NCBI GenBank assembly: GCA_964609125.1
Contig: CAZSQX010000001.1
Location: 54,459 to 118,458, forward strand
Direction: 5' to 3'
DNA: 64,000 bases
DNA from: an uncultured bacterium
Lineage (GTDB): Bacteria; Eisenbacteria; RBG-16-71-46
A program made the position numbers and the translations under genes. Positions 7,025 to 36,983 of the stretch are shown piece by piece; the stretch's first letter is position 1; every line of letters begins with the position of its first letter. The notes beneath the pieces were generated by a model, which saw only the letters and a list, made by a program, of their open reading frames with translations, was not told the origin of the DNA and did no database searches.

Positions 7025-8560
7025 TTGAACCCCCTGCGCCGGAAGTTCACGCGGGATTCCCTCGGCCTCGCGTTCACGCAGTACCTCGTTCGCGCGATGA
7101 GCATGGCGCGCGGCTTCCTCGCCGCGAAGCTGCTCGACCCCACGTCGTTCGGAGCCTGGAACGCGCTCCAGCTCATGATGGACTACGGCGCGCTCGCGCC
7201 GCTCGGCACGCAGCAGGGCCTCGACCAGCTCGTGCCGTCGCGGCTGGTGGAGCAGGACCCGGAACGGGTCGCCCGGCTCAAGCGCGCGGCGCTGTTCAAC
7301 GTGATCCTGCTCACGCTGCTGTTCAGCGCGTTCGGCCTCGGCTGGGCCTCCGTCGGCAGCAGCCGCATGCGGGACTTCTGGAACCTGTCCGGGCTGTCGC
7401 TCGCGATGGCCTGCGTCCTGCTCGTGAACCTCGCCTACGTCGGCACCAGCATCCTGCGATCGCACGGTGACATCGGCGGCCTCAAGCGCTGGTTCGTGCT
7501 GCAGGGCCTGCTCGGCTCGGGGCTCGGGCTGGTCCTCATGCTGTGGTTCGGGCGCTGGGGCCTGCTGTGGGGCTGGTTCGCCGGGTGCCTGGTGGCGTTC
7601 GTGTTCGTGGTCCATCGCGGCCGGCGCGTGATCCCGCTGTGGCCCGCGGCGGCGACCGACTCCCTCGACCTCGTCCAGGTGGGGCTGCCGCTGTACGTGT
7701 TCAGCGCGAGCAGCATCGTGATGCGCAACCTGGACCGCATCGTCGTCCTGCGCTTCCTCGGCACGCAGGCGCTCGGGTACTACGGCCTGTCCGTGAACGT
7801 GCTCACGCTGCTCATGGCGATCCCCGATTCGCTCGCCTACGTGAGCTATCCGCAGCTGGTGAAGCGGTTCAGCGAGGCGGGCGGCGACCCCGCGGCGATC
7901 CGGGAGCGCGTGGACCGGCTCGTGCGCGGCGTGGCGCTCGGGCTGCCTCTGCTCGCCGGGCTGTGCGCGCTGTGGGCGCGCGACCTGGTGCACGCTCTGC
8001 TGCCGCGCTACGACGCCTGCGTGCCGCCTCTGCAGGTGCTCGCGTTCGGCGCCACGGGCCTCGCGCTCAGCGCGTTCGGCTCGATCGTTCTCATGACCGT
8101 CGGCCGGCGCATCATCCTCGTGCCCGCGGCCGTGTTCCTCAGCGCGCTCTCCGGCGGATTCCAGCTGCTGTCCCTGCGCTGGAGCGGCGGGCTCTCCGGC
8201 GTCGCCGGCGCGGCCTCGTTCGCCTACCTCGTGAGCGGAGCAGTGCTCATGTCGCTGGCGTGGTTCGGCCTGGGCCACGCGGTCCCGCGCATGGCGGGCC
8301 TGCTGGCGCGCTGCCTCGCGCCGACCGCGATCGGCGCGCTCGCGGCCTGGGCTTCGGCCCGCTGGCTGCTCCCGGCGGACGCCGGCGGGTTCACGTGGGC
8401 GCTCCTCGCGCGCCTGGTCGCGGCCTCGGGCGTGTTCGCCGCCGGCTACCTCGTGGCCGTGGCCCCGTTCGCGCGCGGGATCGGCTTCCGGGCGCTCGTG
8501 GCGGAGTGGCGGCTCCCGTTCGCGGGCCGCGGCCCGGTTCCCCCCGAGGAGCCGCGATGA
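7025..8560 (+). CDS. wzx: second Wzx-type MOP flippase
   Basis: The N-terminus FTQYLVRAMSMARGFLAAKLLDPTSFG matches the Wzx consensus start. About 12 TM segments. The first in-frame start is TTG at 7025; ATG at 7097 is an alternative. Confidence 0.7.
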   Translation: MNPLRRKFTRDSLGLAFTQYLVRAMSMARGFLAAKLLDPTSFGAWNALQLMMDYGALAPLGTQQGLDQLVPSRLVEQDPERVARLKRAALFNVILLTLLFSAFGLGWASVGSSRMRDFWNLSGLSLAMACVLLVNLAYVGTSILRSHGDIGGLKRWFVLQGLLGSGLGLVLMLWFGRWGLLWGWFAGCLVAFVFVVHRGRRVIPLWPAAATDSLDLVQVGLPLYVFSASSIVMRNLDRIVVLRFLGTQALGYYGLSVNVLTLLMAIPDSLAYVSYPQLVKRFSEAGGDPAAIRERVDRLVRGVALGLPLLAGLCALWARDLVHALLPRYDACVPPLQVLAFGATGLALSAFGSIVLMTVGRRIILVPAAVFLSALSGGFQLLSLRWSGGLSGVAGAASFAYLVSGAVLMSLAWFGLGHAVPRMAGLLARCLAPTAIGALAAWASARWLLPADAGGFTWALLARLVAASGVFAAGYLVAVAPFARGIGFRALVAEWRLPFAGRGPVPPEEPR

Positions 8561-11088
8561 GCGCCGCTCGCCTGGCCGGCGCGCTGCCGCCCGCCGCGGG
8601 GCTCCTCGTCGCGCTCCTGCTCGAGCACGGCGCGCTCGCGGGCTGGCCGGGGCCGCTTCGGCTGGCGCTCGCCTTCGGCGTGCTCGTGCTGCTCCCCGGC
8701 TTCGGCTGGCTGCGGGCGATCGGCGTGCAGCCGCCGGGCGGCTCGGGGCTCGCCGCCGGCTGGGCGCTCGGGCTGGGGCTCGCATGGTGGGGCGTCGGCG
8801 CGCTGCTGACACGCGTCGCGGCGCTCCCGTTCATCGTGCTCGGCCTCGCCGGCGCGCCGTGGGCGGTGCTGCCCTGGCTCGCCGCGGCGGTGGTGGCGCC
8901 GCGGGAGCGGCGGCCGGCCCCGGCGCTGGGGCGCGGCGCGCTCCTGGCCATCGCGCTCGCCGCGTTCTTCGCGTTCGTGCACGTTGCGGGCTCCCCGCCG
9001 CCGCTCACCGCCTACAGCGACTCGCCCGACCACCTCGGCACCATCCGCCGCATGCTCGCGGGCGGCGACGCGTTCCCGGCGGACGCGTTCTTCCGCGACG
9101 CGGGTCGCGCGGGCGTGGACCCGCGCAAGGGTCTCTGGCACCCGGGCGTGGCGGCCTTGTGCGCGCTCGCGCGCGTGGACCCGGTGGACGCCTGGCGCGG
9201 GCTCGCGGCGCTCCTCGCCCCGCTCTTCGTGCTGAATGCGGCCGCGTTCGCGTTCCTGTTGGGCGGCGGGCTCGCGGCCGCGGCGGGGGCGTGGGGACTG
9301 CTGCTCGCCTACGGGGGCGGGCTCGGCACCCAGTACCTGGCCGAGGCGGTGTTCGCCACCAAGCTCGCCGACCAGCTCGCGCTGGCCACGCTCGCGGCGC
9401 TGCTTCAGGACCTCGAGCAGCGCACGGCCCGCACCCGCCTCGCGTTCGTGGGGCTCGCGCTCGGCACGGTGCTCGTGCACGTGTTCGGCGCGATCCAGTT
9501 CGCGATCACGTTCGCGGCGCTGGGGCTCGGCCTGCTGGTGCGCGATCGCGGTGCGTCCCGCCCGCTGGCGCGGCTCGCGGCCAGCTCGCTGGCCGGCGCG
9601 CTCGCGCTGGCGCCGTACCTGGGCTGGCGCGCCCAGCAGGCGTACGCCCCGGTCAACGTCATCCACACCCAGACCCAGGGCATGCTCGAGCTGGCGCCGG
9701 GAGTGAGCATCGTCTCGTTCGGAGCGTGGTGGGACTGGCTCGGTCCGGCGTGGATCCTGTTCCCGCTCTCGCTGCTCGCGTGGCGGCGCGCGTCGGGCTC
9801 GCTCGCCGTGCTCGCGCTGCTCTCGACGACGCTGGCCGTGAGCGTGCTCATGTTCGTCCCGCCCGTGGCGGCGCTGCTCGAGCCGCGGCTCGGCTACCTG
9901 CTCATGCGCCTGCCCTGGCTCCTGCCCGCGTCGGCGGCGGTGGCGTTCCTGGTGGTCGCGATGCGCGACGCGTGGGTATCCGGGCGGCGCGCGTCGGCGG
10001 GGTTCGCGGCGGCGGCGCTCGTAGCCGGGCTCGCGGGCCCGGCCGCGGACGCGGTCCGCGCCTTCGCACCCCGCGGCCCGGCGCCGGCCGCGGGTCCGGC
10101 CAGCGTGTCACGCTGGGCGGACGCGCTGGCGTGGATGGACCGCGAGCTGCCCGAAGGCTCCGTGATCCTGTCCGATCCCGCGACCAGCTACGCCGTGCCC
10201 ATGCTCACGCGCCACTGGGTCACCTGCCTCGCCGACCAGCACAGCTCGCCGAACGACTCGCTCGCGCTCGCGCGCATCCTGGACGCGCGGGACGCGCTCG
10301 ACCCCTGGGCGGACTGGCGGCGCACGGCGGACGTGGTGCGGCGCTGGGGCGCGACCGCGGTCGCGCTGAACGGACGTTTCGAAGAGCCGTTGCAGCTCGA
10401 CTACTGGTCCGCGAGCCGCGAATGGTACGCCGCCGCGCGCGCCCGGCTCGAGCGCGCGCCCGCGGCGTTCGAGCGCGTCCACGAGCGCGACCGGTTCACC
10501 GTGTACGTCATCCACCGCCCCGAGCTGGAGCTGCTCGAGGGCGGCGCCACGCCACGCGCCGTCGTGCGCCCCGCGAACCGCAACGACCGGCCGCGGCCGA
10601 TGGGGTCGGGCCTCCCGGGCCTGGTCGCGTTCCGCCTCGGCGCGACGCAGGCCGCGCGCGGCGACACGCTCGCGGGGCGGATCGAATGGCGCGCCGGGGG
10701 ACGGCTCGATCCCGGCGCCTACCGCGTCTCGGTGCGCTTCGACCGGGCGCTGCCGGCGGGCGTCCCGCGCGCCCCGGCCGCGGTCTCGAAGCCCTGGCGG
10801 AAGCTGGTCGAGCGCCAGCGCGGCGAGCGCTACCGGTTCCGCGCCGACCACCTCCCGACCGGAGGAGCCTATGGCGTGGACCACTGGGCGGTGGATGAGG
10901 TGGTGCTGGACGCGTTCCGGATCGTCGTCCCGCACGACGTGGCCCCGGGTGACTACACCGTGAAGGTGGCCATGACCCGCCAGCCGCACTACCCCAACCT
11001 GCGCCTGCGCGACCTGCTGAGCGACGACGACCTCCTCGACGGCCTCGAGGTGGGCCGGCTCCAGGTCGTGGGCGGGGGAGGACGCTGA
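8557..11088 (+). CDS. large polytopic membrane protein with C-terminal soluble domain; putative GT-C-fold glycosyltransferase/polymerase (YfhO/ArnT-like architecture)
   Basis: ATG at 8557 in ATGA overlap with the wzx stop. About 843 aa: roughly 500 aa of TM helices, then a hydrophilic domain. No stops and a good hydrophobic periodicity. Confidence 0.65.
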   Translation: MSAARLAGALPPAAGLLVALLLEHGALAGWPGPLRLALAFGVLVLLPGFGWLRAIGVQPPGGSGLAAGWALGLGLAWWGVGALLTRVAALPFIVLGLAGAPWAVLPWLAAAVVAPRERRPAPALGRGALLAIALAAFFAFVHVAGSPPPLTAYSDSPDHLGTIRRMLAGGDAFPADAFFRDAGRAGVDPRKGLWHPGVAALCALARVDPVDAWRGLAALLAPLFVLNAAAFAFLLGGGLAAAAGAWGLLLAYGGGLGTQYLAEAVFATKLADQLALATLAALLQDLEQRTARTRLAFVGLALGTVLVHVFGAIQFAITFAALGLGLLVRDRGASRPLARLAASSLAGALALAPYLGWRAQQAYAPVNVIHTQTQGMLELAPGVSIVSFGAWWDWLGPAWILFPLSLLAWRRASGSLAVLALLSTTLAVSVLMFVPPVAALLEPRLGYLLMRLPWLLPASAAVAFLVVAMRDAWVSGRRASAGFAAAALVAGLAGPAADAVRAFAPRGPAPAAGPASVSRWADALAWMDRELPEGSVILSDPATSYAVPMLTRHWVTCLADQHSSPNDSLALARILDARDALDPWADWRRTADVVRRWGATAVALNGRFEEPLQLDYWSASREWYAAARARLERAPAAFERVHERDRFTVYVIHRPELELLEGGATPRAVVRPANRNDRPRPMGSGLPGLVAFRLGATQAARGDTLAGRIEWRAGGRLDPGAYRVSVRFDRALPAGVPRAPAAVSKPWRKLVERQRGERYRFRADHLPTGGAYGVDHWAVDEVVLDAFRIVVPHDVAPGDYTVKVAMTRQPHYPNLRLRDLLSDDDLLDGLEVGRLQVVGGGGR

Positions 11089-11090
11089 GC

Positions 11091-13031
11091 ATGTGCGGCA
11101 TCAACGGCGTGTTCTGGTACCGGGGTGGCGAGGCGGACGCGCGGCTCGTGCAAGCGCAGGCGCGCGCCCAGCGCCACCGCGGACCCGACGACGCCGACGT
11201 CTGGGCGGAGGGGCCGGTGGCGCTCGGCCACCGCCGGCTCGCGGTGGTCGACCTCTCGCCCGGGGGTCGCCAGCCGATCGCCAACGAGGACGGCACGGTG
11301 CACGTGGTGTTCAACGGCGAGCTCTACAACTGGCCGGAGGTCATGCCGCAGCTGGCCGCGCGCGGGCACCGCTTCCGCGGCAGGAGCGACGTCGAGATGC
11401 TGCTCCACCTGTGGGAGGAAAAGGGCCCCGCGCTGGTGGACGACCTGCGCGGCATGTTCGCGTTCGCGCTCCACGACTCGGGACGGCGCACGCTGCTGCT
11501 GGCGCGCGACCGGGCGGGCAAGAAGCCGCTCTACTGGCACGACGACGGCCGGCGGATCGTGTTCGCGAGCGAGTTGAAGAGCCTGCTCGCGGACCCCTCG
11601 GTTCCGCGCGACGTGGACCCGGCCGCGATCGCGGACTACCTGACGTTCCAGTACGTGCCCGCCCCCGGCAGCATCCTCGCGGGGGTGCGCAAGCTGCCCG
11701 CCGGCCACCGTCTGGTGTGCGACGAGCGCGGGCCGCGCGTCGAGCGCTGGTGGGAGCTGCCGTTCACGCCCGACCCCTCGATCTCGGACCGCGACGCCGT
11801 CGAAGGGCTGCGCGAACGGCTGCGCGAGGCCGTGCGCGTGAGGCTCATGTCCGACGTGCCGCTCGGCGCGTTCCTGTCCGGCGGCATCGACTCGAGCGCG
11901 GTGGTCGCGCTCATGACCCGGGTCTCGCCCGCGCGCGTGAAGACGTACAGCATCGGATTCGAGGACGCGGACGTGAGCGAGCTGGAGCACGCGCGCGCGG
12001 TGGCGGCCCACCTCGGCACGGAGCATCACGAGCTCATCGTGCGGCCGCGGGCGCTGGAGCTCCTGCCGCGGCTCGTGTGGGGGCTCGACGAGCCGTTCGC
12101 CGACGCGTCCATGATCCCCACGTTCCACGTCTCCGAGATGGCGCGCCACCACGTCACGGTCGCGCTCTCGGGCGACGGCGGCGACGAGGCGTTCGCCGGC
12201 TACACCACCTACCCGTGGGCCCGGTCCTACGCGCGGGTGGACGCGGTCCCGTGGGCGCTGCGGCGCGCGCTCGGCGTGCCCGGCGCCTGGCTTCCGGGCG
12301 ATCACCCGCTGGGCCGCCGGCTGCGCCGCGCCGCGATGCGCCCCGTGGACCGGCACCTCGAGGCGATGTCGCACTTCCCGCCGCGCGAGCGGCGCGCGGT
12401 GCTCTCGGAGGGGATGCGCGCGGCGGTCGCGGCGCACGAGCCGTGGGCGGTCTCGCGCGCGCTCCACGCGCGCGCGGCGCGCACGCTGGGCGAGGTGCCC
12501 GCGCTGGCCGCGCTCGACGCGCTCACCTACATGACCGACGACGTGCTGGTGAAGGTGGACCGCACGAGCATGCTCAACTCGCTGGAGACGCGTGCGCCGC
12601 TCCTCGACCACCACGTGCTGGAGTGGGCCGCGCGGCTGCCGTTCCACATGAAGCTGCGCGGGGACGTCGGCAAGTGGGTGCTGCGCGAGTGCGTGCGACC
12701 GTGGCTCCCGCCCGCGATCCTCTCGCGCGGCAAGCAGGGTTTCGGCGTGCCGCTCGAGCGCTGGTTCGCCGGCGACTTCGGCCGGCTCGCGCGCGAGGTG
12801 CTGCTCGACCCGCGCACGCGCGGCCGCGGCTGGCTCGACCCGCGCGCCGTGGCCCGTCTGCTGGCGGGCGCCGATCTGCGCGAGGATCTGCGCGCGAAGC
12901 GCGTGTTCACGCTCCTCTGCCTCGAGCTGTGGGCGCGCTGCTACCTCGACCGGCCGCGCTCCGAGCTCGTGGCGCCCACCGACGGTCCGTATCCGCTGCA
13001 CCCGGCCGTCGCGGCGCTGGCGAAGGACTGA
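11091..13031 (+). CDS. asnB: asparagine synthetase family glutamine amidotransferase (AsnB-like, EPS-associated)
   Basis: Starts MCG, the Cys2 nucleophile. PP-loop FLSGGIDSS. 646 aa. Confidence 0.85.
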   Translation: MCGINGVFWYRGGEADARLVQAQARAQRHRGPDDADVWAEGPVALGHRRLAVVDLSPGGRQPIANEDGTVHVVFNGELYNWPEVMPQLAARGHRFRGRSDVEMLLHLWEEKGPALVDDLRGMFAFALHDSGRRTLLLARDRAGKKPLYWHDDGRRIVFASELKSLLADPSVPRDVDPAAIADYLTFQYVPAPGSILAGVRKLPAGHRLVCDERGPRVERWWELPFTPDPSISDRDAVEGLRERLREAVRVRLMSDVPLGAFLSGGIDSSAVVALMTRVSPARVKTYSIGFEDADVSELEHARAVAAHLGTEHHELIVRPRALELLPRLVWGLDEPFADASMIPTFHVSEMARHHVTVALSGDGGDEAFAGYTTYPWARSYARVDAVPWALRRALGVPGAWLPGDHPLGRRLRRAAMRPVDRHLEAMSHFPPRERRAVLSEGMRAAVAAHEPWAVSRALHARAARTLGEVPALAALDALTYMTDDVLVKVDRTSMLNSLETRAPLLDHHVLEWAARLPFHMKLRGDVGKWVLRECVRPWLPPAILSRGKQGFGVPLERWFAGDFGRLAREVLLDPRTRGRGWLDPRAVARLLAGADLREDLRAKRVFTLLCLELWARCYLDRPRSELVAPTDGPYPLHPAVAALAKD

Positions 13032-13034
13032 CGC

Positions 13035-14138
13035 GTGCGACTCGCGGTCCTGATCGGGCACTTCCCGCCGGCGGCCTACGGCGGCGCCGAGCTCCAGGCC
13101 GAGGGCTGGGCCCGGCGGCTGGCCGGCCGACACGAGGTGACGGTGGTCACGCGCGCCGACCACGAACGGCGGCCCGGGCGCGAGTCCCGGGACGGATTCG
13201 AGATCGTGCGACTGCCGGTCTCGCGCGTGCCGGGCTGGAGGACCGTCGCGGACGTCGTGGGCATCGAGCGCGCGCTCGCGCGGATCAAGCCGGGGCCGGA
13301 GCTCCTGCTCTGCTTCCAGACGTTCGTCTCGGGCCTCGCCGGGACGCGGGCCGGCGCTCGGCTCGGCATCCCGGCGGCCGTGTGGATCCGCGGCGAGGCG
13401 GAGTACCGGCTCGGAGACTCGGCGCTCATGCGCGCCCTCTCGCCGCGCGTCTGGGCCGCGGCCGCGGGCGTGCTGGTGCAGAGCGAGGCGAACCGCGCCG
13501 ACCTGCTGGCCGAGCTGGAACGTGTGGCGCCGCGGCTCGCGCCGCGGGTGCGCGAGCGGCTGGAGGTGGTCGAGAACGGGCTCGAGCTGCCGCCGCGGGG
13601 TCCGCGGCCGGACGACGGCCGCGTCGTCACGGTGGGACGACTGATCGCGGACAAAGGGATGGACGTGGTGATCGCGGCCTGCGCGCGCGCCGCGCGTCCG
13701 CTGACGATCGTGGGCGAGGGGCCCGAGCGCGCCGCGCTCGAGACCCGCGCCCGCGCGCTCGCGGCCGACGTGTGCTTCGCCGGGCACGTGAGCCGTGAGG
13801 AGCTGGCCGCGATCTATGCCGGCGCCGGCGCGGTCGTGCTGGCCGCACGCCGCGGTGAGGGGCTCCCCAACGTGCTGCTCGAGGGCATGGCGCACGGCCG
13901 GCCGGTCGTGGCCACGGCCTGCGCCGGGACGCGCGATCTGGTCGTGGACGGCGAGAACGGCGTGATCGTGCCCGCCGGCGACGCCGAGGCGCTGGCGAGC
14001 GTGCTCACCCGCCTGGCCGGCGACGCGCCGTGGCGCGAGCGGCTCGGGGATCGGGCCCGGGCCACGGCCGAGCGCTTCGAGTGGTCGCGCGTCCAGCCCA
14101 GGCTGGAGACGCTTCTCGAACGCTGGCGGCGCGCGTGA
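13035..14138 (+). CDS. GT4 glycosyltransferase
   Basis: GTG at 13035, 3 nt after the asnB stop. C-terminal GT4 motifs RLIADKG and EGLPNVLLEGMAHGRPVVAT. Confidence 0.8.
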   Translation: MRLAVLIGHFPPAAYGGAELQAEGWARRLAGRHEVTVVTRADHERRPGRESRDGFEIVRLPVSRVPGWRTVADVVGIERALARIKPGPELLLCFQTFVSGLAGTRAGARLGIPAAVWIRGEAEYRLGDSALMRALSPRVWAAAAGVLVQSEANRADLLAELERVAPRLAPRVRERLEVVENGLELPPRGPRPDDGRVVTVGRLIADKGMDVVIAACARAARPLTIVGEGPERAALETRARALAADVCFAGHVSREELAAIYAGAGAVVLAARRGEGLPNVLLEGMAHGRPVVATACAGTRDLVVDGENGVIVPAGDAEALASVLTRLAGDAPWRERLGDRARATAERFEWSRVQPRLETLLERWRRA

Positions 14139-15274
14139 GCCGAGCGCCGCGGGTGGCGATGTTCGCCGAGTTCCTCTACCCGGTCGTGAGCGGCGGCCGG
14201 GTGCCGTTCGCGGGCGGCATCGAGGTCCAGCTCGCGCACCTCGGCCGCGGGCTCGCGCGCCGCGGCTTCGACGTGCGCGTGATCACCTGCGACTACGGGC
14301 AGCCGGACCCGTTCGTGGTGGACGGGCTCACCCTGCACAAGGCGTACCCGCCCGCGGGCGGCATCCCTGTCCTGCGTTTCTTCCACCCGCGGCTCACGCT
14401 CGGCCTCTCGGCGTTGTGGCGCGCGGATGCGGACGTGTACCTGTTCCGGGGCGGCTCGATGTGGGCGGGACTCGTCCACGCCGTGGCGCGTGCGCGACGG
14501 CGGCGGTTCGTGTGGCTCACGGGCCACGACCACGACGTTCGCCGCGAGCTGCCCGACGTGCACGGTCCGCGCGACCGCCTGCTCGTGCGCGGCGCGATGC
14601 GCGGCGCGGACGCCATCGTCACGCAGACGCGCGCCCAGCAGGAACGGCTGCTCGCCGACTTCGGCCTGCGCTCGACCGTGCTCATGAACTCGGTCCCGAT
14701 CCCGCCCGAAACCGAGGTGCGCGACTGCGGCGCTGGCGCGGGTCTCGCCTGGCTTTCGACATACCGCGCCGGCAAGCGTCCCGACTGGTTCGTGCGCTTC
14801 GCCGAACGCCACCCGGACGTGCCCTGTCGCATGGCGGGCGTCGTGCCCGGCCCGCCGCAGGGCGATGCGGAGTACCGGCGCGTGCGCGAGAGGGCCGCGG
14901 CGATCCCGAACCTATCGGTGCAGGGCACGCTTCCGCACGAGCAGGTGGGCGCGTTCCTCGCCGGCGCCGCGCTGTTCGCGCACACTTCGCCCGCCGAGGG
15001 CTTCCCGAACACGCTGCTCGAATGCTGGGCCCGCGCGCTCCCCGCGGTCTCGTGCTTCGACCCCGACGGCATCGTCGAGCGCGAGCGGCTCGGCGCCTGC
15101 CGCGACGATTACGACGCCTGGGAGCGCGAGATCGAGCGCCGGCTCGCCGACCCCGCACTGCGCCGCGACGAGGGCCGCCGCGCCCGCGCCTGGGCCGCCG
15201 CCCACCACGCCCCCGAGGTCATCCACGAGGCCCTGGCGACACTGCTGCGGGAGGTCCTGGCCAAGCGGGGGTGA
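14135..15274 (+). CDS. GT4 glycosyltransferase
   Basis: GTG at 14135 in GTGA overlap (alternative ATG at 14159). Motif EGFPNTLLECWARALPAV is GT4-like. Confidence 0.75.
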   Translation: MSRAPRVAMFAEFLYPVVSGGRVPFAGGIEVQLAHLGRGLARRGFDVRVITCDYGQPDPFVVDGLTLHKAYPPAGGIPVLRFFHPRLTLGLSALWRADADVYLFRGGSMWAGLVHAVARARRRRFVWLTGHDHDVRRELPDVHGPRDRLLVRGAMRGADAIVTQTRAQQERLLADFGLRSTVLMNSVPIPPETEVRDCGAGAGLAWLSTYRAGKRPDWFVRFAERHPDVPCRMAGVVPGPPQGDAEYRRVRERAAAIPNLSVQGTLPHEQVGAFLAGAALFAHTSPAEGFPNTLLECWARALPAVSCFDPDGIVERERLGACRDDYDAWEREIERRLADPALRRDEGRRARAWAAAHHAPEVIHEALATLLREVLAKRG

Positions 15275-15278
15275 GGCC

Positions 15279-15332: not shown

Positions 15333-16196
15333 CTACAACCACCCCTCCTTCTCGAGGATCTCGCGCATCGTCGTCCACTCGTAGCGCTCGAACAGCCGCT
15401 CGAGCTTGGTCATCACGGTGTGCAGGTTCACGTACGTGATGAACCCGTTCACCGGGTCGAGCGGCAGCCGGCGTGCCTCCGGCGCCACCTCGCGCGGATG
15501 CAGGTAGAGCACGAACGGCCGGTGCCGCAGGATGAAGTCCAGCCCGGCGCGGAACACCCACAGCGGCAGCGCGCGCAGGTAGAACCCGCCACCCACCGGG
15601 AAGCGGACCCCCTGGAACTCGGCGATCGCCACCGGGAACTCCACAAGCTCGCCGCGAGGGTCGTGATCGCGGAGGTCCTCGCGGGACGGCCGGTAGATGC
15701 CCACCGGAGCCCCCGGCGTGCCGTAGAGCTTCACCTTCATCGGAAACACGCTGCTGTCGTAGCGGTATCCCTCGCTCCTCAGCACGTCGAGCGCCCAGGC
15801 GTTCGAGCGGTCGATGCTGAACGTGGGCGCGCGGAAGCCGATGACCGGGAACGAGCCCAGCACGCCCTCGACCGCGGCCCGGAACTCGCGCAGCTCCGCC
15901 CGGAACGAGGCCGGGTCCGCGCGCCACACCGGCCGGTGCGACATGCCGTGGCAGGCCAGCTCGTGCCCCTCGTCCACCATGCGGCGGATGAGCCCGGGGT
16001 GCGCGCGGACCACGTCGCCCAGGACGAAGAACGTGCTCCGCCAACCGTGGCGGGCGAGCAGGTCGAGGATGGCCTCGGTGCCCCGCTCCACGATGCTCTC
16101 CTCGGGCCGGGCGTCGCCCACGCGGTGCAGCTCGCTGTGGTGCCAGTCCTCGATGTCGAACGAGAACGCCGCGCGGTGGGGGAACCTGGGGCTCAC
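15333..16196 (-). CDS. polysaccharide deacetylase, exosortase/PEP-CTERM-locus subfamily-like
   Basis: GTG at 16196 overlaps the upstream stop (GTGA). The N-terminus AAFSFDIEDWHH matches the hallmark start of that subfamily. NodB-like His/Asp residues are present. 287 aa. Confidence 0.8.
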   Translation of the reverse strand: MSPRFPHRAAFSFDIEDWHHSELHRVGDARPEESIVERGTEAILDLLARHGWRSTFFVLGDVVRAHPGLIRRMVDEGHELACHGMSHRPVWRADPASFRAELREFRAAVEGVLGSFPVIGFRAPTFSIDRSNAWALDVLRSEGYRYDSSVFPMKVKLYGTPGAPVGIYRPSREDLRDHDPRGELVEFPVAIAEFQGVRFPVGGGFYLRALPLWVFRAGLDFILRHRPFVLYLHPREVAPEARRLPLDPVNGFITYVNLHTVMTKLERLFERYEWTTMREILEKEGWL

Positions 16197-18244
16197 GGCC
16201 GGCGACGGTACACGCGATGGGTCGGGGTGGCGTAGACGCGCTCGAACCGCGCGCTGTCCGCCTCGAGCGCGGTCCACGGGGCGGCGTCCGGGAAGTCCTC
16301 GATCCGGTAGAGCACGTACACCGGGGCCCCGAGCGCGTCCAGGAGCTCGACATCCCGGTCGAGCCCGGTCGCCGGGCCGAAGAGATCCGCCATCACTTCG
16401 CGACGGCGGGCCAGCTCCGAGACGGAGAACGCCGTGCGCTCGGCGGGGTGCGGCGTGCCGGCCAGCAGCCGGCGGCGTCCCTCCACGAGCAGAACGTCCC
16501 GCGAGCGGTTGTCCACGAACACCGCCCGCGCCGGCGTCGCGCTGCGGACCCAGGCGTACAGATCGCGATCGCCCGGGGCGCGGCGCGTCTCCGGCGCCGC
16601 GGCGGCCGACGGATCCGCCAGGAACCCGCGCAGGAACAGGGCGGAAGGCAGGACGAACGCGACACCCACCGCGAGCGCCGCCCCGATGCGGCCGAGCCGT
16701 GCGCGCCACGCCGCCAGCAACCCCGGCAGGCCGGCCGCACCGAGGATCGCGAGCGGCGCGAACACCTGCCAGACGAACTTCACCTCGTTGGATTCCGGGA
16801 GGTGGACGAAGAGCGCGAAGCCGACCATGGCCGCGGTCCAGGCCACGAGCCACACGCCCGCGACCCGGCCCTCGGCGACCACGCGCCGTACGCCGGCCAT
16901 GGCCGCCCACGCGGCCAGCCCGCAGGCCGTGACCAGCGTCCACGGCATCTCCCACCCGAATCGAAGGTAGTGGTGCTCGAACCCCGACCGGTCCGCCTGC
17001 CAGCCGCGCATCATCATCCGGAAGTAGGGCAGCGTGAGCGCGAGCCCTGCCGCGAGCGCGCCCGCCAGCGCCAGCGCGCGACGCGGATCCGCGAGCTCGC
17101 GCCGGCCCGCGCCGAGCAGCGCCAGGGCCGCGCACGCCGCGATTCCCACGGGCACGGCGGACAGGCCGACGACGCTGTGGAAGAGCATCATGCCTGCCGC
17201 GGCGCACGCCGCCACGAGCAGCCAGCGCCACGCCGGCGGCGAACCCTCGGGGCGCTCCTCCCGGCCCGCGGCCAGCCAGCGGCCGCCTGCCCACAGCGAC
17301 ACCAACAGCAGCAGGTAGGCGTAGCCGAGCGCCGTGCCGATCGTGAACTTGTCCCAGCTGTTCACCATCCAGGCGAACGGCGCGCGGAGCTGGTAGAGGA
17401 CGTCGGTGCGGTCCCAGGCGGCGCCTTCCCAGATGCGCGCCACCTCGGCCGCCCCGCGCACCTCGCCCCGGAACGCGCGCAGGAACCAGAGCGGCCACAG
17501 CAGGAGCGCCCCCGCGTTGAGTCCGGTGAGGAGGAGCGGGAGCGCCGGGCGCGCCGTGCGGTGCTCCCGCCACACGAGCCATGACAGCTGCCAGGCCAGC
17601 CACACCTGTGCGCCGATCCACACGACGTTGGCCGTGGCCATGGTCGTGAATGGGCGTGGATCGGCGCGCAACGAGCTCGCGAGCGCGATGAACAGGTTGT
17701 AGAACCACACGTACGCGAGCGGATGTCCGGCGAGGCGCGGGTCCTCGGGCCACACGCCACGCGTCGCGATCTCCCACACGATCCCGGCGTGAACCCACGT
17801 GTCGCTCCGCACCCGCACCCACGGCGAGGCGAGGAGCGGCAGCGCCACGAACGCGGCCGCCGCGACCGCCCACGCCCACGCCGCGCGCGAGGCCGGCGCG
17901 TCGCCGGGGCCGGCGGCGGGCTCCACGAGCGCGCGCGCCTCCCCGCTCGCGAACAGCAGCCAGCTCCCGACGGCCACCAGCCGGGCCGCGGCCGGAAGCG
18001 GCTGTCCGGACTGGAGCAGGGCCCAGCCGAACACGGACGCGGCGAACGGGGCCAGCACCACGCCCAGCGTCCACCGGGTCGCCGCCGGAGCGCCGGGCAG
18101 GAGGAGCCGGACCCACGCCAGTCCGGGGAACACGCCGAGCCAGACGAAGCCCGCCACGTCGCCGGCCGGCCCCGGCACGAACAGCCCCGCGGCCCCGAGC
18201 GCGAACGTGGCCGCGATCGGCCCGAGCCGGCCCGCGAGCCTCAA
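16193..18244 (-). CDS. large polytopic membrane protein, same architecture as 8557..11088 (putative GT-C-like)
   Basis: In-frame TTG at 18244 forms a TTGA overlap with the GT39 stop. The longer in-frame extension up to 19192 is Arg/Gly-rich junk. About 683 aa, multi-TM plus a C-terminal soluble domain. Confidence 0.6.
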   Translation of the reverse strand: MRLAGRLGPIAATFALGAAGLFVPGPAGDVAGFVWLGVFPGLAWVRLLLPGAPAATRWTLGVVLAPFAASVFGWALLQSGQPLPAAARLVAVGSWLLFASGEARALVEPAAGPGDAPASRAAWAWAVAAAAFVALPLLASPWVRVRSDTWVHAGIVWEIATRGVWPEDPRLAGHPLAYVWFYNLFIALASSLRADPRPFTTMATANVVWIGAQVWLAWQLSWLVWREHRTARPALPLLLTGLNAGALLLWPLWFLRAFRGEVRGAAEVARIWEGAAWDRTDVLYQLRAPFAWMVNSWDKFTIGTALGYAYLLLLVSLWAGGRWLAAGREERPEGSPPAWRWLLVAACAAAGMMLFHSVVGLSAVPVGIAACAALALLGAGRRELADPRRALALAGALAAGLALTLPYFRMMMRGWQADRSGFEHHYLRFGWEMPWTLVTACGLAAWAAMAGVRRVVAEGRVAGVWLVAWTAAMVGFALFVHLPESNEVKFVWQVFAPLAILGAAGLPGLLAAWRARLGRIGAALAVGVAFVLPSALFLRGFLADPSAAAAPETRRAPGDRDLYAWVRSATPARAVFVDNRSRDVLLVEGRRRLLAGTPHPAERTAFSVSELARRREVMADLFGPATGLDRDVELLDALGAPVYVLYRIEDFPDAAPWTALEADSARFERVYATPTHRVYRRRP

Positions 18245-23392: not shown

Positions 23393-23397
23393 GGCCG

Positions 23398-28333: not shown

Positions 28334-29922
28334 CGGGAGAGCCCGCGAGTCCCTCCGCGCAGGGACCCCGCCTCCGGGTAGAGGATCCGCAGGACACCAC
28401 CGCCCGCCCGACCCCGTCCGATCCTGTCCTGCTGCGCTCGCTCATCGCGGCCACGCTCGTGGGCGCGGTGCTCCGTCTGTTCCGGCTCGGCCACCAGAGC
28501 CTGTGGATCGACGAGCAGTTCACGTTGCGCGCGGCGGGCCTCCCGGGCGGATTCGCGTGGCGCGACCTGCTCGACAACGTGCACGGGCCACTGCACACGC
28601 TCGCGGTGGCAGCGGCCGCGGCGCTCGGGGGCACGTCGGAGTGGGTCGTGCGGCTGCCGAGCGCGCTCGCGGGCATCGCGATGGTCCCGGTGATGGCGTG
28701 GCTCGCGGGGCGGTTCGCCGGGCGGGGCGCCCTGGCGCCGGCCGCCTGGCTCGCGGCGGGCTCGCCGTTCGCGGTCTGGTACGCGCAGGAGTGCCGCAAT
28801 TACTCGTTCGCGATGCTCGCCTCGGCGGCCGCGACAGGGCTGCTCCTCGGCCTCCACCGCCGCTGCGGCCCGCGCGACGTCGTGCGCTACCTCGGCGTGG
28901 CCGCGGCGGGGGCGCTCTCCAACCTCTCGTTCGCGCTGCTCCTGCCGCTCCACCTGCGGCTGTGGCTCGCCGCGGGCCCCACCCGGGCGGCCCGCGTCCG
29001 CGCGCTGGCGCTGGTGGCGGCGGGCGCGCTGCTCGTCTCCCTGCCTTGGCTGCCCGCGATCGGCGGCATCTGGGACTGGTCGCGGCTCGCGCCGGGCCGG
29101 GAGCCATCCGCGGCCGAGGCGCCGTTGCGGACCAGCGGCACGTTCCACGCCGCGGCGGTCCCGTACGCGCTCCACGCCATGCTGGTGGGCTACTCGGGCG
29201 GGCCGAGCCTGCGCGAGCTGCGGGCCGGACCCGCGCGCGCCGTGCGCGCCCACCTCCCCGAGGTGGCGCTCTCGGGGCTCGTGTTCGGCGCGCTGCTCGC
29301 GCTCGGCGGCCGCGCGCTCGTCCGCCGCGGGCGGAGCCGGGACGCGCTGCTGTGGCTCGTCGCGCCGATGCTCGTGGTGAGTTACTTTGCCGCCCACAAC
29401 TTCAAGGTGTTCCACCCACGGTATCTCGCGGTCGCCTGGCCGTGCCTGGTGCTGGCGGTGGCGGCGGCGTTCACCGACCTCGGTCCGCGCGCGAGGCGCG
29501 GGTTCGCCGTCGCGGTGGGCCTCCTGTGGGCGCTCTCGATCGGGCGCATGGCGTTCGATCCGGCCCACGGCCGGGAGGACTACCGTGCCGCGCTCGGCCG
29601 CGTCCGGGCGGGATTCCAGTCGGGCGAGCGGGTGCTCGCGGTCGGGGCGCCGGAGCCTGTGGAGTGGTACGGGCGCGGACTTCCGGTCGCGCGCTGGTGG
29701 TTGGGATTCGCGGCGGACCCGGAGCGCATGGCGGGCAGGCTCGAGGACTCGCTCGGCGTGGCGCCGGGCACCTGGATCGTCTCGAGCCGTTCGGAGGACC
29801 TGGACCCGGGCGGTCGGCTGGCGCGCTGGCTGGACGCGCGCGTGCGGCCCGACGCGCGCTGGGAGGCGGGCGGCGTCAAGGTGTGGCACTGGCGGCGGGA
29901 GGGAGCGGCCCCTCGCCCCTGA
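28225..29922 (+). CDS. GT-C glycosyltransferase, GT39/PMT-like (start uncertain)
   Basis: Multi-TM protein with the first-loop motif SLWIDEQFT (the DE motif of PMT-like enzymes). In-frame start candidates are GTG 28180, ATG 28225 and CTG 28330. There is no ATG/GTG/TTG between the upstream stop (28333) and the first TM helix. Confidence 0.6.
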   Translation: MDAARPRVHPAPVAAARPEDPAAHDPGRSVSGGSVLTGEPASPSAQGPRLRVEDPQDTTARPTPSDPVLLRSLIAATLVGAVLRLFRLGHQSLWIDEQFTLRAAGLPGGFAWRDLLDNVHGPLHTLAVAAAAALGGTSEWVVRLPSALAGIAMVPVMAWLAGRFAGRGALAPAAWLAAGSPFAVWYAQECRNYSFAMLASAAATGLLLGLHRRCGPRDVVRYLGVAAAGALSNLSFALLLPLHLRLWLAAGPTRAARVRALALVAAGALLVSLPWLPAIGGIWDWSRLAPGREPSAAEAPLRTSGTFHAAAVPYALHAMLVGYSGGPSLRELRAGPARAVRAHLPEVALSGLVFGALLALGGRALVRRGRSRDALLWLVAPMLVVSYFAAHNFKVFHPRYLAVAWPCLVLAVAAAFTDLGPRARRGFAVAVGLLWALSIGRMAFDPAHGREDYRAALGRVRAGFQSGERVLAVGAPEPVEWYGRGLPVARWWLGFAADPERMAGRLEDSLGVAPGTWIVSSRSEDLDPGGRLARWLDARVRPDARWEAGGVKVWHWRREGAAPRP

Positions 29923-29981
29923 AACGGGCGGGCGGCCGCGGAGCGCCGCGATCGGACCGGGCGATCCCGGAGGGAGAGGCG

Positions 29982-31298
29982 ATGCGGGTGGTGGTGGTGG
30001 GGCTCGGTTACGTGGGGTCGGTGTGCTCGGCGTGCCTCGCCGAGCGCGGGCACGACGTCGTGGGCGTGGACACGACGCCGAGCAAGGTGGACCGCATCCG
30101 GGCCGGCGAGAGCCCGATCGTGGAGCGCGGCCTCGGCGAGCTCATCGCGCGCGCGGTCGCCGCCGGCCGCCTGACCGCCACGACCCAGATCGCCGAGGCC
30201 ATGCCCGGCGCCGACATCGTGCTCGTGTGCGTCGGTACGCCGAGCGCCGAGGACGGCTCGCTCGAGCTGGGCCATGTCAAGCGCGCCTGCGCCGAGGTGG
30301 GCCGCGCGCTCCGCGGCGCCGACCGCTTCGTGACCGTGGTCATGCGCAGCACGATGCTGCCCGGCTCGGTGCTGGACGAGCTGGCCCCGGTGCTCGAGCG
30401 GGCCGCGGGCGGGCGCGCCGGCGAGACGTTCGGCGTGGGCTACAATCCGGAGTTCCTGCGCGAGGGCACCGCGGTGGAGGACTTCTTCGGCGCCGACTAC
30501 ACCATCCTCGGCGCCGGCTGCGACCGCGCCCTGGCCGCGCTCCACCGGCTCTACGACGGCGTGGGGGGCGAGCTGATCGCCACCTCCATCCCCACCGCGG
30601 AGATGCTCAAGTACGTGAACAACTCATTCCACGCGCTCAAGGTCGCGTTCGCGAACGAGTTCGGCCGGCTGTGCAAGCGCGAGGGCGTGGACAGCCACGA
30701 GGTCATGCGGCTGATGCGCCGCGACACGAAGCTCAACCTGTCGGGCGCCTACCTGTCGCCCGGGTTCGCGTTCGGCGGCTCGTGCCTGCCCAAGGACCTG
30801 CGCGCGGTGAACTCGCGCGCGCGCCGCCACGACCTCGACCTGCCGGTGCTCGCGAGCATCCTGCGCTCGAACGAGCTGCATGTGGCCGAGGCGGTGCACC
30901 TCATCGAGCGCTTCCGGCGCCGGCGGCTGGGCTTCCTCGGCCTGTCGTTCAAGGCCGGCACCGACGACCTGCGCGAGAGCCCGATCCTGCGCGTGATCGG
31001 CGCGCTCGTCGGCAAGGGCTACGACGTCCGCCTGCACGACCCGAGCCTCGACATGGAGCTCGTGCTCGGCGCCAACCGGCGGTTCGTCGAGCACGAGCTG
31101 CCCTACCTGCCCGAGCGTCTGCGCCCGTCGGTGGAGGAGGTGCTCGACCACGCCCAGGTCGTCGTGATCGGGAACCGCTCGGCGGAGTACCGCACGCTCG
31201 GCCCGCGCCTGAGGGCCGGCCAGGTTGTCGTGGACCTGGTGGCCGCGCTCGAGCCCGGCTCGGTCACGGCCGGGGAATACCATGGCCTCGCCTGGTAG
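29982..31298 (+). CDS. ugd: UDP-glucose / GDP-mannose dehydrogenase family enzyme (UDP-glucose 6-dehydrogenase-like)
   Basis: GGAGGGAGAGG lies upstream of ATG 29982. Motifs MRVVVVGLGYVGSV, catalytic GFAFGGSCLPKD and a C-terminal UDP-binding domain. Confidence 0.85.
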   Translation: MRVVVVGLGYVGSVCSACLAERGHDVVGVDTTPSKVDRIRAGESPIVERGLGELIARAVAAGRLTATTQIAEAMPGADIVLVCVGTPSAEDGSLELGHVKRACAEVGRALRGADRFVTVVMRSTMLPGSVLDELAPVLERAAGGRAGETFGVGYNPEFLREGTAVEDFFGADYTILGAGCDRALAALHRLYDGVGGELIATSIPTAEMLKYVNNSFHALKVAFANEFGRLCKREGVDSHEVMRLMRRDTKLNLSGAYLSPGFAFGGSCLPKDLRAVNSRARRHDLDLPVLASILRSNELHVAEAVHLIERFRRRRLGFLGLSFKAGTDDLRESPILRVIGALVGKGYDVRLHDPSLDMELVLGANRRFVEHELPYLPERLRPSVEEVLDHAQVVVIGNRSAEYRTLGPRLRAGQVVVDLVAALEPGSVTAGEYHGLAW

Positions 31299-35835: not shown

Positions 35836-36983
35836 TGCGGGTGGCGATGATCGGCCAGAAGGGGATCCCGGCCACGTACGGCGGCATCGAGCGGCACGTG
35901 GACGAGATCGCGCGCCGGCTCGTCCAGCGGGGCGTCGCCGTGGACGTGTTCTGCCGTCTCTACTACACGCCCGCCGGCAGCCGCTACCACGGCGTGGGCC
36001 TGCTGCGCAGGCCGAGCCTCCACACCAAGCACCTCGACACCGCCACGCACGTGGCGTGGTGCACGCTCGAGTCCATGTTCCGCCGCTACGACGTGGTCCA
36101 CTTTCATGCGCTCGGGCCGGCGCTGTTCGCCTCGCTGCCGCGGCTCGTGGGCTCGAGGACCGTGGTCACCGTGCACGGGCTCGACTGGCAGCGCGAGAAG
36201 TGGGGGCGGTTCGCGGCCTGGGTGCTGCGGCGATGCGAGCGCCCCGCGGCGCGGTTCCCGAACCGGACCATCGTCGTGAGCAAGACGCTGCGCGAGCACT
36301 TCCGCGTCGCGCACGGCGTGGACGCGGCCTACATCCCGAACGGCACGCTGCTGCCCCAGCCGCGGCCGCCCCGCAAGCTCGCCTCGCTCGGCCTCGAGCC
36401 CGGCAGATACGTCCTGTTCGTGGGCCGGCTCGTGCCCGAGAAGGGGGTGCACTTCCTGTGCGAGGCCTTCAGCCGGATCGACACCGACATGAAGCTCGCG
36501 CTCGTGGGCGGCCTGTCGTTTTCGCAGGACTACGTGAGCCTGCTCCGGCGCTTCGAGAGCGACCGCATCCGCCTCCTGGACTACGTGTTCGGCGAGGCGC
36601 TCGAGGAGCTGTGGAGCAACGCCTACTGCGTGGTGCAGCCCTCGACCATGGAGGGGCTGTCGATCGCCCTGCTCGAGGCGCTCTCGTACGGCCGCTGCGT
36701 CCTCATCTCGGACATCCCCGAGAACATGGAGGTGGCGGCGGAGTGCGCGGTGCCGTTCCGGAGCCGGGACGTGGACGACCTGCGCGCCAGGCTCGAGCAC
36801 CTGATCCGGAACCCGGACGAGGTGCAGCGCCACGGCGAGCGCGCCCGCCAGCACATCGCCCGGCGCTACTCGTGGGACACGGTGGCCGAGGCCACGGCGA
36901 AGCTGTACGAGGACCTGACCGGCCGTTCGCGAGGCGACATGGCGCGCGGCGGGCCGCCGCCGGGCCCGGGGCGCGAGCCGTGA
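35835..36983 (+). CDS. GT4 glycosyltransferase
   Basis: ATG at 35835 (TGATG overlap). Motifs MIGQKGIPATYGGIERHV, VGRLVPEKG and EGLSIALLEALSYGRCVL. Confidence 0.8.
   Translation: MRVAMIGQKGIPATYGGIERHVDEIARRLVQRGVAVDVFCRLYYTPAGSRYHGVGLLRRPSLHTKHLDTATHVAWCTLESMFRRYDVVHFHALGPALFASLPRLVGSRTVVTVHGLDWQREKWGRFAAWVLRRCERPAARFPNRTIVVSKTLREHFRVAHGVDAAYIPNGTLLPQPRPPRKLASLGLEPGRYVLFVGRLVPEKGVHFLCEAFSRIDTDMKLALVGGLSFSQDYVSLLRRFESDRIRLLDYVFGEALEELWSNAYCVVQPSTMEGLSIALLEALSYGRCVLISDIPENMEVAAECAVPFRSRDVDDLRARLEHLIRNPDEVQRHGERARQHIARRYSWDTVAEATAKLYEDLTGRSRGDMARGGPPPGPGREP

Follow-up and report, generated by a model that had tools for sequence, protein, structure and literature searches.

Uncultured bacteria of the phylum Candidatus Eisenbacteria share a large gene cluster that probably directs the synthesis of a surface polysaccharide. 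The region considered here, positions 7025-36983 of a 64-kb stretch of contig CAZSQX010000001.1 (the whole 64,000-nt stretch is called the window below), is best read as the core of a surface-polysaccharide locus of ~47 kb. The locus would belong to the pathway family that combines an outer-membrane polysaccharide export protein (OPX), a polysaccharide co-polymerase (PCP) and a Wzx flippase, extended by a toolkit of GT-C glycosyltransferases that draw on lipid-monophosphate-linked sugars. The probability of this reading is put at about 0.6. As an OPX/PCP/Wzx cluster with unusually many GT-C modules, the locus is specific to Ca. Eisenbacteria.

Within the window, the pathway is represented by a priming phosphoglycosyltransferase (PGT), g23 (Bac_transf, 226 bits), and by two MOP/Wzx flippases, g08 (Polysacc_synt_3, 53.3 bits) and g03 (Polysacc_synt and Polysacc_synt_3). 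Genes for export and chain length are found beyond the edge of the window, one of two options that the first-pass annotation of this DNA had foreseen. Over 21,088 bp, a sister contig, Ga0394876_0002431 (L017), and the window are separated by 2 mismatches. Just ahead of window base 1, this contig encodes a 460-aa Wzz-domain protein (a weak match), the C-terminus of which weakly matches EpsF and TIGR03007, and a 256-aa P-loop protein with TIGR01007 (polysaccharide tyrosine autokinase) as its top match (74.5 bits, below the cutoff of 108), followed by the N-terminal part of g01; both genes end <0.5 kb 5' of g01. Use of the kinase-like protein as a probe yielded 38 related metagenome loci, seven with enough upstream sequence to follow the order further. 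In all seven, the order is OPX, PCP with two transmembrane (TM) helices, a protein resembling bacterial tyrosine kinases (BY-kinase-like), g01, g02, and Wzx onward, and every relative has g01 between the BY-kinase-like gene and g02. The relatives' OPX is a 248-aa protein with a signal peptide, a Poly_export domain (52.8 bits, cutoff 28) and one SLBB domain; 5' of it lie rpsO, pnp, an M16 peptidase, an aminotransferase, a DUF3108 gene and a GSU2086-family gene. The apparent lack of export genes thus most likely arises because the window edge cuts off the canonical chain-length and export genes. A non-canonical export route, which had also been suggested, is not needed, since the PCP and kinase-like genes are directly upstream and the OPX is present in relatives.

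The OPX is of the short class-3 (truncated) type, as described for the EPS, MASC and BPS pathways of Myxococcus xanthus (PMC9603273, PMC9601211, PMC12819527). The M. xanthus class-3-OPX Wzx/Wzy loci and the present locus have in common a PGT, cytoplasmic glycosyltransferases, a MOP/Wzx flippase, a two-TM PCP, a separate BY-kinase-like P-loop protein and, as seen in relatives, an OPX with Poly_export and one SLBB domain only. They differ in that no Wzy is found in this clade, no beta-barrel partner is identified beside the OPX, the kinase-like protein has neither the Walker A lysine nor a tyrosine cluster, and five GT-Cs are embedded in the cluster. No 18-strand beta-barrel porin partner for a class-3-type OPX was seen adjoining the OPX in related loci. 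The DUF3108 protein and the GSU2086-family protein (NF052581, 372 bits) are found directly 5' of the short OPX at 5741-7503 of L031, and likewise in L026, L027, L032, L034, L039 and L040. Both were considered as possible porin partners.

The genes that carry the remainder of the argument are the following.

g03, 2030..3625, plus strand: MOP/Wzx-family flippase, directly 5' of a GT2-DUF2304 pair
g04, 3637..4326, plus strand: small GT2; top match PpgS (polyprenyl-phospho-GalNAc synthase), 104.6 bits, below the cutoff of 370; candidate synthase of polyprenyl-phosphate-linked N-acetylhexosamine (HexNAc)
g05, 4358..4729, plus strand: DUF2304 protein with three TM helices; family of GacJ and Rv3632
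g06, 4726..5733, plus strand: LPG_synthase_TM / TIGR00374 flippase-like domain, 85.4 bits, above the cutoff of 43.2
g08, 7025..8560, plus strand: MOP/Wzx flippase; Polysacc_synt_3 above the cutoff of 23; 4-nt overlap with g09
g09, 8557..11088, plus strand: 843-aa class-A GT-C with a C-terminal alpha/beta plus beta-sandwich periplasmic region
g13, 15333..16196, minus strand: NodB-fold deacetylase, Pfam Polysacc_deac_1 and DUF3473, with the motif FSFDIEDW
g14, 16193..18244, minus strand: class-A GT-C glycosyltransferase
g15, 18241..19473, minus strand: 410-aa divergent PMT_2-family GT-C
g16, 19470..20456, minus strand: LPG_synthase_TM flippase-like protein, Pfam 109.6 bits
g17, 20431..21399, minus strand: GT2 with two C-terminal TM helices, AglJ/PpgS/ArnC-like; top match AglJ, 93.8 bits, below cutoff
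g19b, 23398..24126, minus strand: 242-aa GT2, dolichyl-phosphate hexose transferase / AglJ-like (128 and 111 bits, below cutoffs)
g20, 24328..25095, plus strand: 255-aa GT2, PpgS/AglJ-like (90 and 79 bits, below cutoffs)
g23, 27359 (or 27410)..28333, plus strand: priming PGT with a ~110-aa low-complexity N-terminus and one TM helix
g24, 28459..29922, plus strand: PMT_2-family GT-C, 27.0 bits, above the gathering cutoff of 26.1
g31, 37051..38625, plus strand: AftB-like GT-C

Three large membrane proteins that earlier had no family match (g09, g14 and g15) are indeed encoded in the region, and g24 and g31 are two further ones. All five are class-A GT-C glycosyltransferases of the ArnT/AftA/OST/PMT kind, not Wzy-type polymerases or canonical oligosaccharyltransferases (OSTs). 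The earlier proposal that the large membrane proteins may be polymerases is thus not borne out: two are class-A GT-Cs by fold and three by profile, and they coexist with a Wzy_C gene in other Eisenbacteria. Queried as single sequences, g09, g14, g15, g31 and g41 (a polytopic protein 3' of the cluster) gave nothing significant in Pfam or NCBIfam. Pairwise BLASTP revealed no similarity among the membrane proteins, and they are linked only via profile-profile and fold comparison. The structure model of g09 (pLDDT 90.3) matches DPY19, STT3, AftA, AglB, ArnT and PglB in Foldseek at E 1e-7 to 1e-3. Among the two GT-Cs assigned by fold, g09 and g14, the top matches are ArnT, AftA, AglB and STT3, and no WaaL, SEDS/RodA or Wzy occurs among their structural matches. 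Alignment of g09 with g14 by hhalign (97.3% probability, E 2e-11, 555 columns) indicates that they are distant paralogues. The g09 family is seen almost only in Eisenbacteria; 14 of 26 members weakly match Pfam DUF6541 and 8 of 26 match the NEW3 beta-sandwich domain. PDB-sequence profile searches with g14 and g15 returned chance matches only (Mer kinase, the SRP receptor).

The remaining three are placed by profile. A full-library search recovered 999 relatives of g15; PMT_2 is matched by 33 of 35 aligned members (best 1.4e-19), and an orthologue in a relative matches PMT_2 directly. g24 passes PMT_2 directly and weakly matches Agl23. The g31 family profile matches the mycobacterial arabinosyltransferase AftB (PDB 9dlf; E 1.4e-8) along its first 230 residues, a stretch that takes in the acidic loop SEDAYITFRYA. 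The g31 family also aligns with that of g15 at 94% probability, and some JGI homologues of g31 are named arabinofuranosyltransferase. Invariant acidic residues are found in g14 (D148, D168), g09 (D155, D158, D188), g15 (D41) and g31 (E70 and D71, aligned with the AftB DD). In the models these residues appear to sit in the first extracytoplasmic loop, a placement read from helix boundaries rather than from a residue-level superposition.

The use of polyprenyl-phosphate-linked sugar donors by these GT-Cs is suggested by their linkage to genes resembling GT2 lipid-phosphate-sugar synthases. Besides the five GT-Cs, the toolkit comprises four to five small GT2s, of which g04, g17, g19b and g20 have polyprenyl- or dolichyl-phosphate sugar synthases (PpgS, AglJ, DPhHxTase) as their top matches, the DUF2304 protein g05 and two LPG_synthase_TM flippase-like proteins (g06 and g16). 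One set forms a minus-strand operon, g17 (GT2), g16 (flippase-like), g15 (GT-C), g14 (GT-C) and g13 (deacetylase), in which the genes overlap by 4 to 26 nt and are predicted to be translationally coupled. A second block, g03 (Wzx), g04 (GT2), g05 (DUF2304) and g06 (flippase-like), is encoded on the plus strand. Such sets of GT-C, GT2, DUF2304 and flippase-like genes look like the periplasmic glycosylation modules of the Gtr, Arn and Gac type.

The deacetylase g13 is the last gene of the minus-strand operon and overlaps g14 by 4 nt. It has intact NodB-type motifs (FDIED, HGMSH, RAP, LHP) and no signal peptide, which points to a cytoplasmic enzyme. Of 27 related loci with a length of 15 kb or more, 25 have g13 and g14 side by side. 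Six more distant species carry the g14-type GT-C, a g04-type GT2 (~50% identical), the deacetylase and DUF2304 in this order, contiguous and co-directional, and a seventh species has the order GT2, deacetylase, GT-C. By analogy, and judging from gene context, g13 most likely de-N-acetylates polyprenyl-phosphate-HexNAc to provide a hexosamine donor for g14, a role like that of ArnD. In the Arn pathway (ArnC, ArnD, ArnE/F, ArnT), which modifies lipid A with aminoarabinose, ArnD acts between ArnC and ArnT (PMC12690121, PMC8495848). The present locus differs in that g13 belongs to the DUF3473/TIGR03006-like branch and not to ArnD, an ArnA formyltransferase is absent, LPG_synthase_TM and MOP proteins take the place of SMR-type ArnE/F as candidate flippases, and the acceptor is probably a polysaccharide rather than lipid A.

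The plus-strand block recalls two other systems. In the Gac system, GacJ (DUF2304) activates the GlcNAc-P-Und synthase GacI, and the Wzx-type protein GacK is the proposed lipid-phosphate-sugar flippase for the GT-C GacL (10.1101/180810). In mycobacteria, Rv3632, of the DUF2304 family like GacJ, activates PpgS, and the PpgS-Rv3632-Rv3779 pathway carries out a galactosamine (GalN) modification (PMC9671496). The likeness lies in a PpgS/GacI-like GT2 followed by DUF2304 (g04-g05), an adjacent Wzx (g03) and a GT-C. In contrast to both systems, the family of the GT-C g14 carries no Pfam or CAZy-type annotation; furthermore, the deacetylase is genetically linked here, whereas the mycobacterial one is described as unidentified. 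A further difference from the Gac and the mycobacterial/corynebacterial hosts is that the Eisenbacteria host is a diderm of the FCB group.

Three-component Gtr/GT136 systems likewise combine a lipid-monophosphate donor synthase, a flippase (possibly MATE/MOP) and a GT-C; in the GT136 pentofuranose systems a MATE-family flippase serves, and some GT-Cs carry an extra carbohydrate-binding domain (PMC11127046), as g09 appears to do. Unlike these systems, several modules with five GT-Cs occur within one biosynthetic locus and are conserved core genes, not accessory serotype-converting additions. The first-pass annotation had taken the two Wzx flippases to imply two different repeat units. This does not follow, because g03 heads a gacI-gacJ-gacK-like block, where a Wzx-type protein is proposed to act on a lipid-phosphate monosaccharide, and g03 may flip a lipid-phosphate sugar as GacK and MATE flippases do.

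The other genes of the locus are the following.

g01, 4..873, plus strand: C-terminal 289 aa of a 418-aa protein, the N-terminal part of which lies outside the window, on L017 at 1061-2317
g02, 879..2033, plus strand: protein of the alkaline-phosphatase/phosphodiesterase superfamily; Pfam Phosphodiest 29 bits, above the gathering cutoff of 23
g07, 5736..6959, minus strand: DegT/ArnB/PseC-type sugar aminotransferase (ArnB 363 bits, PseC 350 bits, both below cutoff)
g10, 11091..13031, plus strand: AsnB-type glutamine amidotransferase
g11, 13035..14138, plus strand: GT4 glycosyltransferase
g12, 14153..15274, plus strand: GT4 glycosyltransferase
g18, 21467..23392, minus strand: second AsnB-type amidotransferase
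g21, 25115..26083, plus strand: NAD-dependent sugar epimerase/dehydratase
g22, 26080..26994, plus strand: class I SAM methyltransferase
g25, 29982..31298, plus strand: nucleotide-sugar (UDP-glucose-type) 6-dehydrogenase; TIGR03026 387 bits, above the cutoff of 190
g26, 31282-32487, plus strand: GT4
g27, 32466-33653, plus strand: GT4
g28, 33650-34627, plus strand: GT2
g29, 34624-35835, plus strand: GT4, weak match
g30, 35835-36983, plus strand: GT4
g32-g34, 38677..41941, plus strand: mannose-1-phosphate guanylyltransferase-like protein, Pro/Ala-rich protein, and alternative bacterial GlmU (TIGR03991, 289 bits, above the cutoff of 225)

The genes named in the first-pass annotation, namely the deacetylase, two AsnB-like proteins, the priming enzyme and two Wzx flippases, were all recovered by gene calls and Pfam/NCBIfam matches. 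Its count of seven GT4 enzymes is corrected to six in 7025-36983 (starts 13035, 14153, 31282, 32466, 34624 and 35835); the same interval holds four GT2 genes (g17, g19b, g20 and g28). g32-g34 supply sugar nucleotides and probably mark the 3' end of the cluster. The 318-aa product of g33 (39735-40691) is Pro/Ala-rich with one TM helix, and its gene has 4-nt overlaps with those of the ManC-like protein and the alternative GlmU; its C-terminal ~70 residues show a faint likeness to the RlpA C-terminus (18.7 bits, far below cutoff). Profile scans found no Pfam or NCBIfam family for g01; its N-terminal part has a GS..GE..SDLDL pattern, reminiscent of Pol-beta-type nucleotidyltransferases.

A pathway may be proposed from gene content, folds, family scores and synteny; its substrates, the order of its steps, the ArnD-like role and the uronamide chemistry are deduced from these. 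The small monotopic PGT g23 would prime undecaprenyl phosphate, and the six GT4s together with the GT2 g28 would assemble a lipid-diphosphate-linked oligosaccharide in the cytoplasm. Precursors would come from the UDP-sugar dehydrogenase g25, the epimerase, the aminotransferase, the methyltransferase and the two AsnB-type amidotransferases; most likely, uronic acids formed by g25 are amidated to uronamides by g10 and g18. Wzx would then flip the repeat unit, and chain length and export would be handled by the PCP, the BY-kinase-like ATPase and the short class-3-type OPX, the last known from relatives. On the periplasmic face, the GT-Cs would add sugars to the glycan from lipid-monophosphate donors, as in the Gtr, Arn, Gac and PpgS/Rv3779 systems, with the second Wzx, g03, possibly serving as a lipid-phosphate-sugar flippase. 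De-N-acetylation of polyprenyl-phosphate-HexNAc by g13 would furnish the hexosamine donor for g14, following the logic of ArnC, ArnD and ArnT.

The locus is conserved across Ca. Eisenbacteria. The g14 family is found in 54 species genomes (one genome scanned per species), most of them titled Ca. Eisenbacteria and a few being SMAG bins under other phylum names, and NCBI records give the name Candidatus Eisenbacteria bacterium to close homologues of the lineage-specific proteins. In the closer relatives (g14 ~58-67% identical), the gene order of the window is kept over the stretches covered, the longest of which (L084) extends from g07 to the PGT. Six SMAG metagenome-assembled genomes with g14 homologues and Eisenbacteria-type synteny (L062, L087, L088, L095, L097 and L107) are labelled Verrucomicrobiia, Methylomirabilota, Udaeobacter, Terriglobales, Saccharimonadaceae and Limnocylindria; these contigs are probably mis-binned rather than horizontally transferred.

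Of the 27 related loci, 11 carry a gene of the Wzy_C family, usually after the GT2 g19b and often before the AsnB-type g18. Both g09 and g14 coexist with Wzy_C in L012, L075 and L094, and g14 does so in L077, L085, L093, L097-L099, L103 and L110. The sole NCBIfam match of the relatives' Wzy_C protein (4798-6252 of L012, GCA_009612875.1, and ten other loci) is the TfpM O-linking oligosaccharyltransferase, a weak match of 26.5 bits; judged on this match, the protein could be a ligase or an O-linking OST, not a polymerase. g41 (48441-49436) was considered as a hidden Wzy and set aside: it has no family match and no similarity to the relatives' Wzy_C, and it lies ~6.5 kb past the cluster end. Its 331-aa product is polytopic (~6 to 8 TM helices), and the gene is located between thioredoxin-reductase-like and DUF4301 genes, with a further GT2 (46716-47450) nearby.

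Several observations weigh against the proposed pathway. Its core polymerisation enzyme is missing: family scans turned up no Wzy in the window, in the remaining parts of the contig that were examined or in the close clade, and tblastn with the Wzy_C protein of a relative gave no match in the window. An OPX is known from relatives, whose BY-kinase-like proteins are 64-72% identical, and not from this exact strain. The BY-kinase-like protein itself (195-971 of L017, corresponding to window -1249..-473) scores below every curated cutoff. Its Walker A lysine is replaced by Thr (GEGTST, not GxGK(S/T)), a variant present in every relative in which the region was located (7 of 9: L017, L022, L026, L027, L031, L032 and L040; not located in L037 and L039), and it ends in HEIPGFIYRRI with a single C-terminal tyrosine, a tail kept in 9/9 loci. 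Given these residues, canonical Wzc-type regulation is doubtful, and the protein may be a non-catalytic or non-autophosphorylating partner. The polyprenyl-phosphate-sugar synthase assignments are all top matches far below equivalog cutoffs. g13 is not a member of the ArnD family; no ArnD model is among its NCBIfam matches at E <= 0.001, and only NodB-fold families are shared. The identities of the acceptor and the sugar are not readable from sequence. Finally, models associated with XrtA, the exosortase of PEP-CTERM systems, score best for the AsnB pair, the deacetylase, the OPX, the PCP and several GT4s, so a historical or functional link to an exosortase is possible.

The last point leads to the alternative that survives best, that the locus is a genuine but divergent XrtA/PEP-CTERM exopolysaccharide (EPS) system whose exosortase and PEP-CTERM substrates are encoded elsewhere in the genome and whose polysaccharide works with exosortase-sorted proteins. 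The first-pass annotation had seen exosortase-type hallmarks without an exosortase. Both AsnB-like proteins, g10 and g18, score highest with TIGR03108 (593.5 and 591.0 bits), and match TIGR03104 at 416 and 419 bits; the deacetylase scores 229.1 bits with TIGR03006 against 61 bits with the NodB model, and several GT4s match the XrtA-associated models stp1, stp2 or stp3. The top NCBIfam match of the relatives' OPX is TIGR03027 (85.1 bits), and XrtA models are listed at lower rank for the PCP (TIGR03007, 42.1 bits, behind EpsF/eps_transp_fam) and for the kinase-like protein of the sister contig (TIGR03018, 57.9 bits, behind TIGR01007). Types of protein shared with XrtA loci are the DUF3473 deacetylase, the long AsnB-like amidotransferases, GT4s of the stp-like kind, the short OPX, the PCP and the kinase-like protein. 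However, these scores all fall below the curated cutoffs, most of them far below: 276.2 for TIGR03006, 816.9 for TIGR03108, 570 for TIGR03104, 180 for TIGR03027, 278.85 for TIGR03007 and 230.65 for TIGR03018. The NodB score is likewise below its cutoff of 240, whereas the generic TIGR01536 is passed by both AsnB-like proteins (471 and 503 bits, cutoff 267). The priming enzyme g23 reaches 170.3 bits with TIGR03013 (EpsB_2; cutoff 393.35) and 300.9 bits with TIGR03025, just above the cutoff of 295.55 and for the catalytic domain only; it is a small monotopic PGT, not EpsB_2. The first-pass annotation had named four models for the check (TIGR03006, TIGR03108, TIGR03104 and TIGR03013) and had set better scores with generic NodB and AsnB models as a ground for refutation. 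The XrtA-associated models outscore the generic ones, so on this ground the idea is not refuted outright, but none reaches its curated cutoff. The preference for XrtA models reflects relatedness to XrtA-associated families, not membership.

In described XrtA loci, the exosortase usually lies inside the EPS cluster. It had been noted earlier that this region lacks an exosortase, and the observation holds: NCBIfam and Pfam scans, a six-frame tail scan and tblastn revealed no exosortase, PEP-CTERM, Wzz/Wzc, Poly_export or Wzy_C gene in the window. The precomputed Pfam matches covered every called gene from about window position 1091 to the window end and 10 kb beyond, where PIG-L, an SSF transporter, DUF2911, PA/FlgD_ig and a hybrid kinase are encoded; there is no VPEP match on any of these genes. 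No Pfam or NCBIfam exosortase model matches the window genes, the downstream 10 kb or the relatives' upstream border, and EpsI, too, went undetected. A six-frame scan of the window for PEP-CTERM tails (PEP motif, hydrophobic stretch, basic tail) gave one match, in a non-coding frame. Nor was an exosortase found among 20 otherwise unassigned polytopic membrane proteins taken from related Eisenbacteria loci that total 1.1 Mb; these are further PMT/PMT_2 GT-Cs, an acyltransferase, Wzx proteins, a WecA-type enzyme and an MFS pump, or remain unassigned. With every candidate marker below its curated cutoff and no exosortase or PEP-CTERM protein in the stretches examined, membership in the XrtA/PEP-CTERM class is not supported and the alternative is unlikely. 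The marker scores are consistent with a locus distantly related to XrtA-type loci, with no evidence for exosortase dependence. No literature was found on Eisenbacteria exopolysaccharide or exosortase, on DUF6541 or on DUF3473.

The missing polymerase allows a more radical alternative, that g09 and/or g14 is the polymerase, or a ligase, with flipped lipid-diphosphate repeat units as donors, and replaces Wzy in this clade. The locus otherwise has a PGT, Wzx, PCP and OPX; wzx g08 overlaps g09 by 4 nt; the best structural matches of g09 and g14 include OSTs, whose donors are lipid-diphosphate glycans; and g09 has extra periplasmic beta-sandwich domains. However, other Eisenbacteria loci carry both GT-Cs alongside a Wzy_C gene, known Wzy, WaaL and SEDS proteins are not among their structural matches, and g14 is tied to a deacetylase and polyprenyl-phosphate-sugar synthase module, the signature of monosaccharide-donor GT-Cs such as ArnT. 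Such a replacement is therefore quite improbable. The weakest alternative, that a single lipid-linked oligosaccharide is moved en bloc to a protein or other acceptor by g09 or g14 acting as an OST in the style of archaeal Agl or bacterial Pgl, with no polymerised EPS, would account for the absence of Wzy, the AglJ top matches of the GT2s and the weak Agl23 match of g24, but it is very improbable, and g09 and g14 were set aside as OSTs, given that neither carries the OST motif WWDYG in its C-terminal domain (g09 has WWDWL at residue 391, in the membrane domain, with a first W that is not conserved), that ArnT and AftA score equal to or above OSTs among the structural matches, and that the PCP, BY-kinase-like protein and OPX that flank the locus serve polymer export, not protein glycosylation.

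The OPX/PCP/Wzx locus with its GT-C toolkit is embedded in DNA of ~75% G+C throughout the window. Long open reading frames are uninformative here, because such a composition fills all six frames with them; genes were called from third-position GC bias, which gave 51 genes with hardly any gaps, consistent with the JGI calls on Ga0394875_0000320, the 89.7-kb source contig in JGI metagenome 3300037501. On the 3' side of the cluster (42007-44563 and 51046-53076) are glycogen-type genes for a GalT-like nucleotidyltransferase, a GlgA-type GT5 starch/glycogen synthase and a GlgX-type debranching enzyme. Further on, a co-directional minus-strand block (56132-61367) encodes an FHA-domain membrane protein, a 798-aa HEAT-repeat Ser/Thr kinase and two tandem PilT/T2SSE-type ATPases, and has the look of a module for retraction or regulation of type IV pili.

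The results sketch, for the first time in functional terms, a large surface-glycan locus that is conserved throughout the uncultured phylum Ca. Eisenbacteria, and two membrane-protein families without prior annotation are now placed in the GT-C class-A fold. To read a new export route into exosortase hallmarks that come with no exosortase would be a mistake, as the export genes fall beyond the window edge. It is conceivable, if a long shot, that this clade lost the Wzy_C gene which other Eisenbacteria retain in that position and that a class-A GT-C took over repeat-unit polymerisation or ligation, the best candidate being g09, which is coupled to g08 and has periplasmic beta-sandwich domains; if true, an ArnT/OST-type rather than a Wzy-type enzyme would for the first time be the polymerase of a Wzx-dependent pathway. 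More likely, and less radical, is a general role for the DUF3473 deacetylases, including the XrtA-associated TIGR03006 family, as lipid-linked HexNAc de-N-acetylases that feed GT-Cs, a proposal that is tentative and stands at slightly less than even odds. The conserved module of GT-C, PpgS-like GT2, DUF3473 deacetylase and DUF2304 leads to a testable function for DUF3473/TIGR03006 proteins, the de-N-acetylation of lipid-phosphate-HexNAc, as ArnD acts on Ara4FN. It may also offer a candidate enzyme type for the unassigned deacetylation step in the GalN pathway of mycobacterial arabinogalactan.

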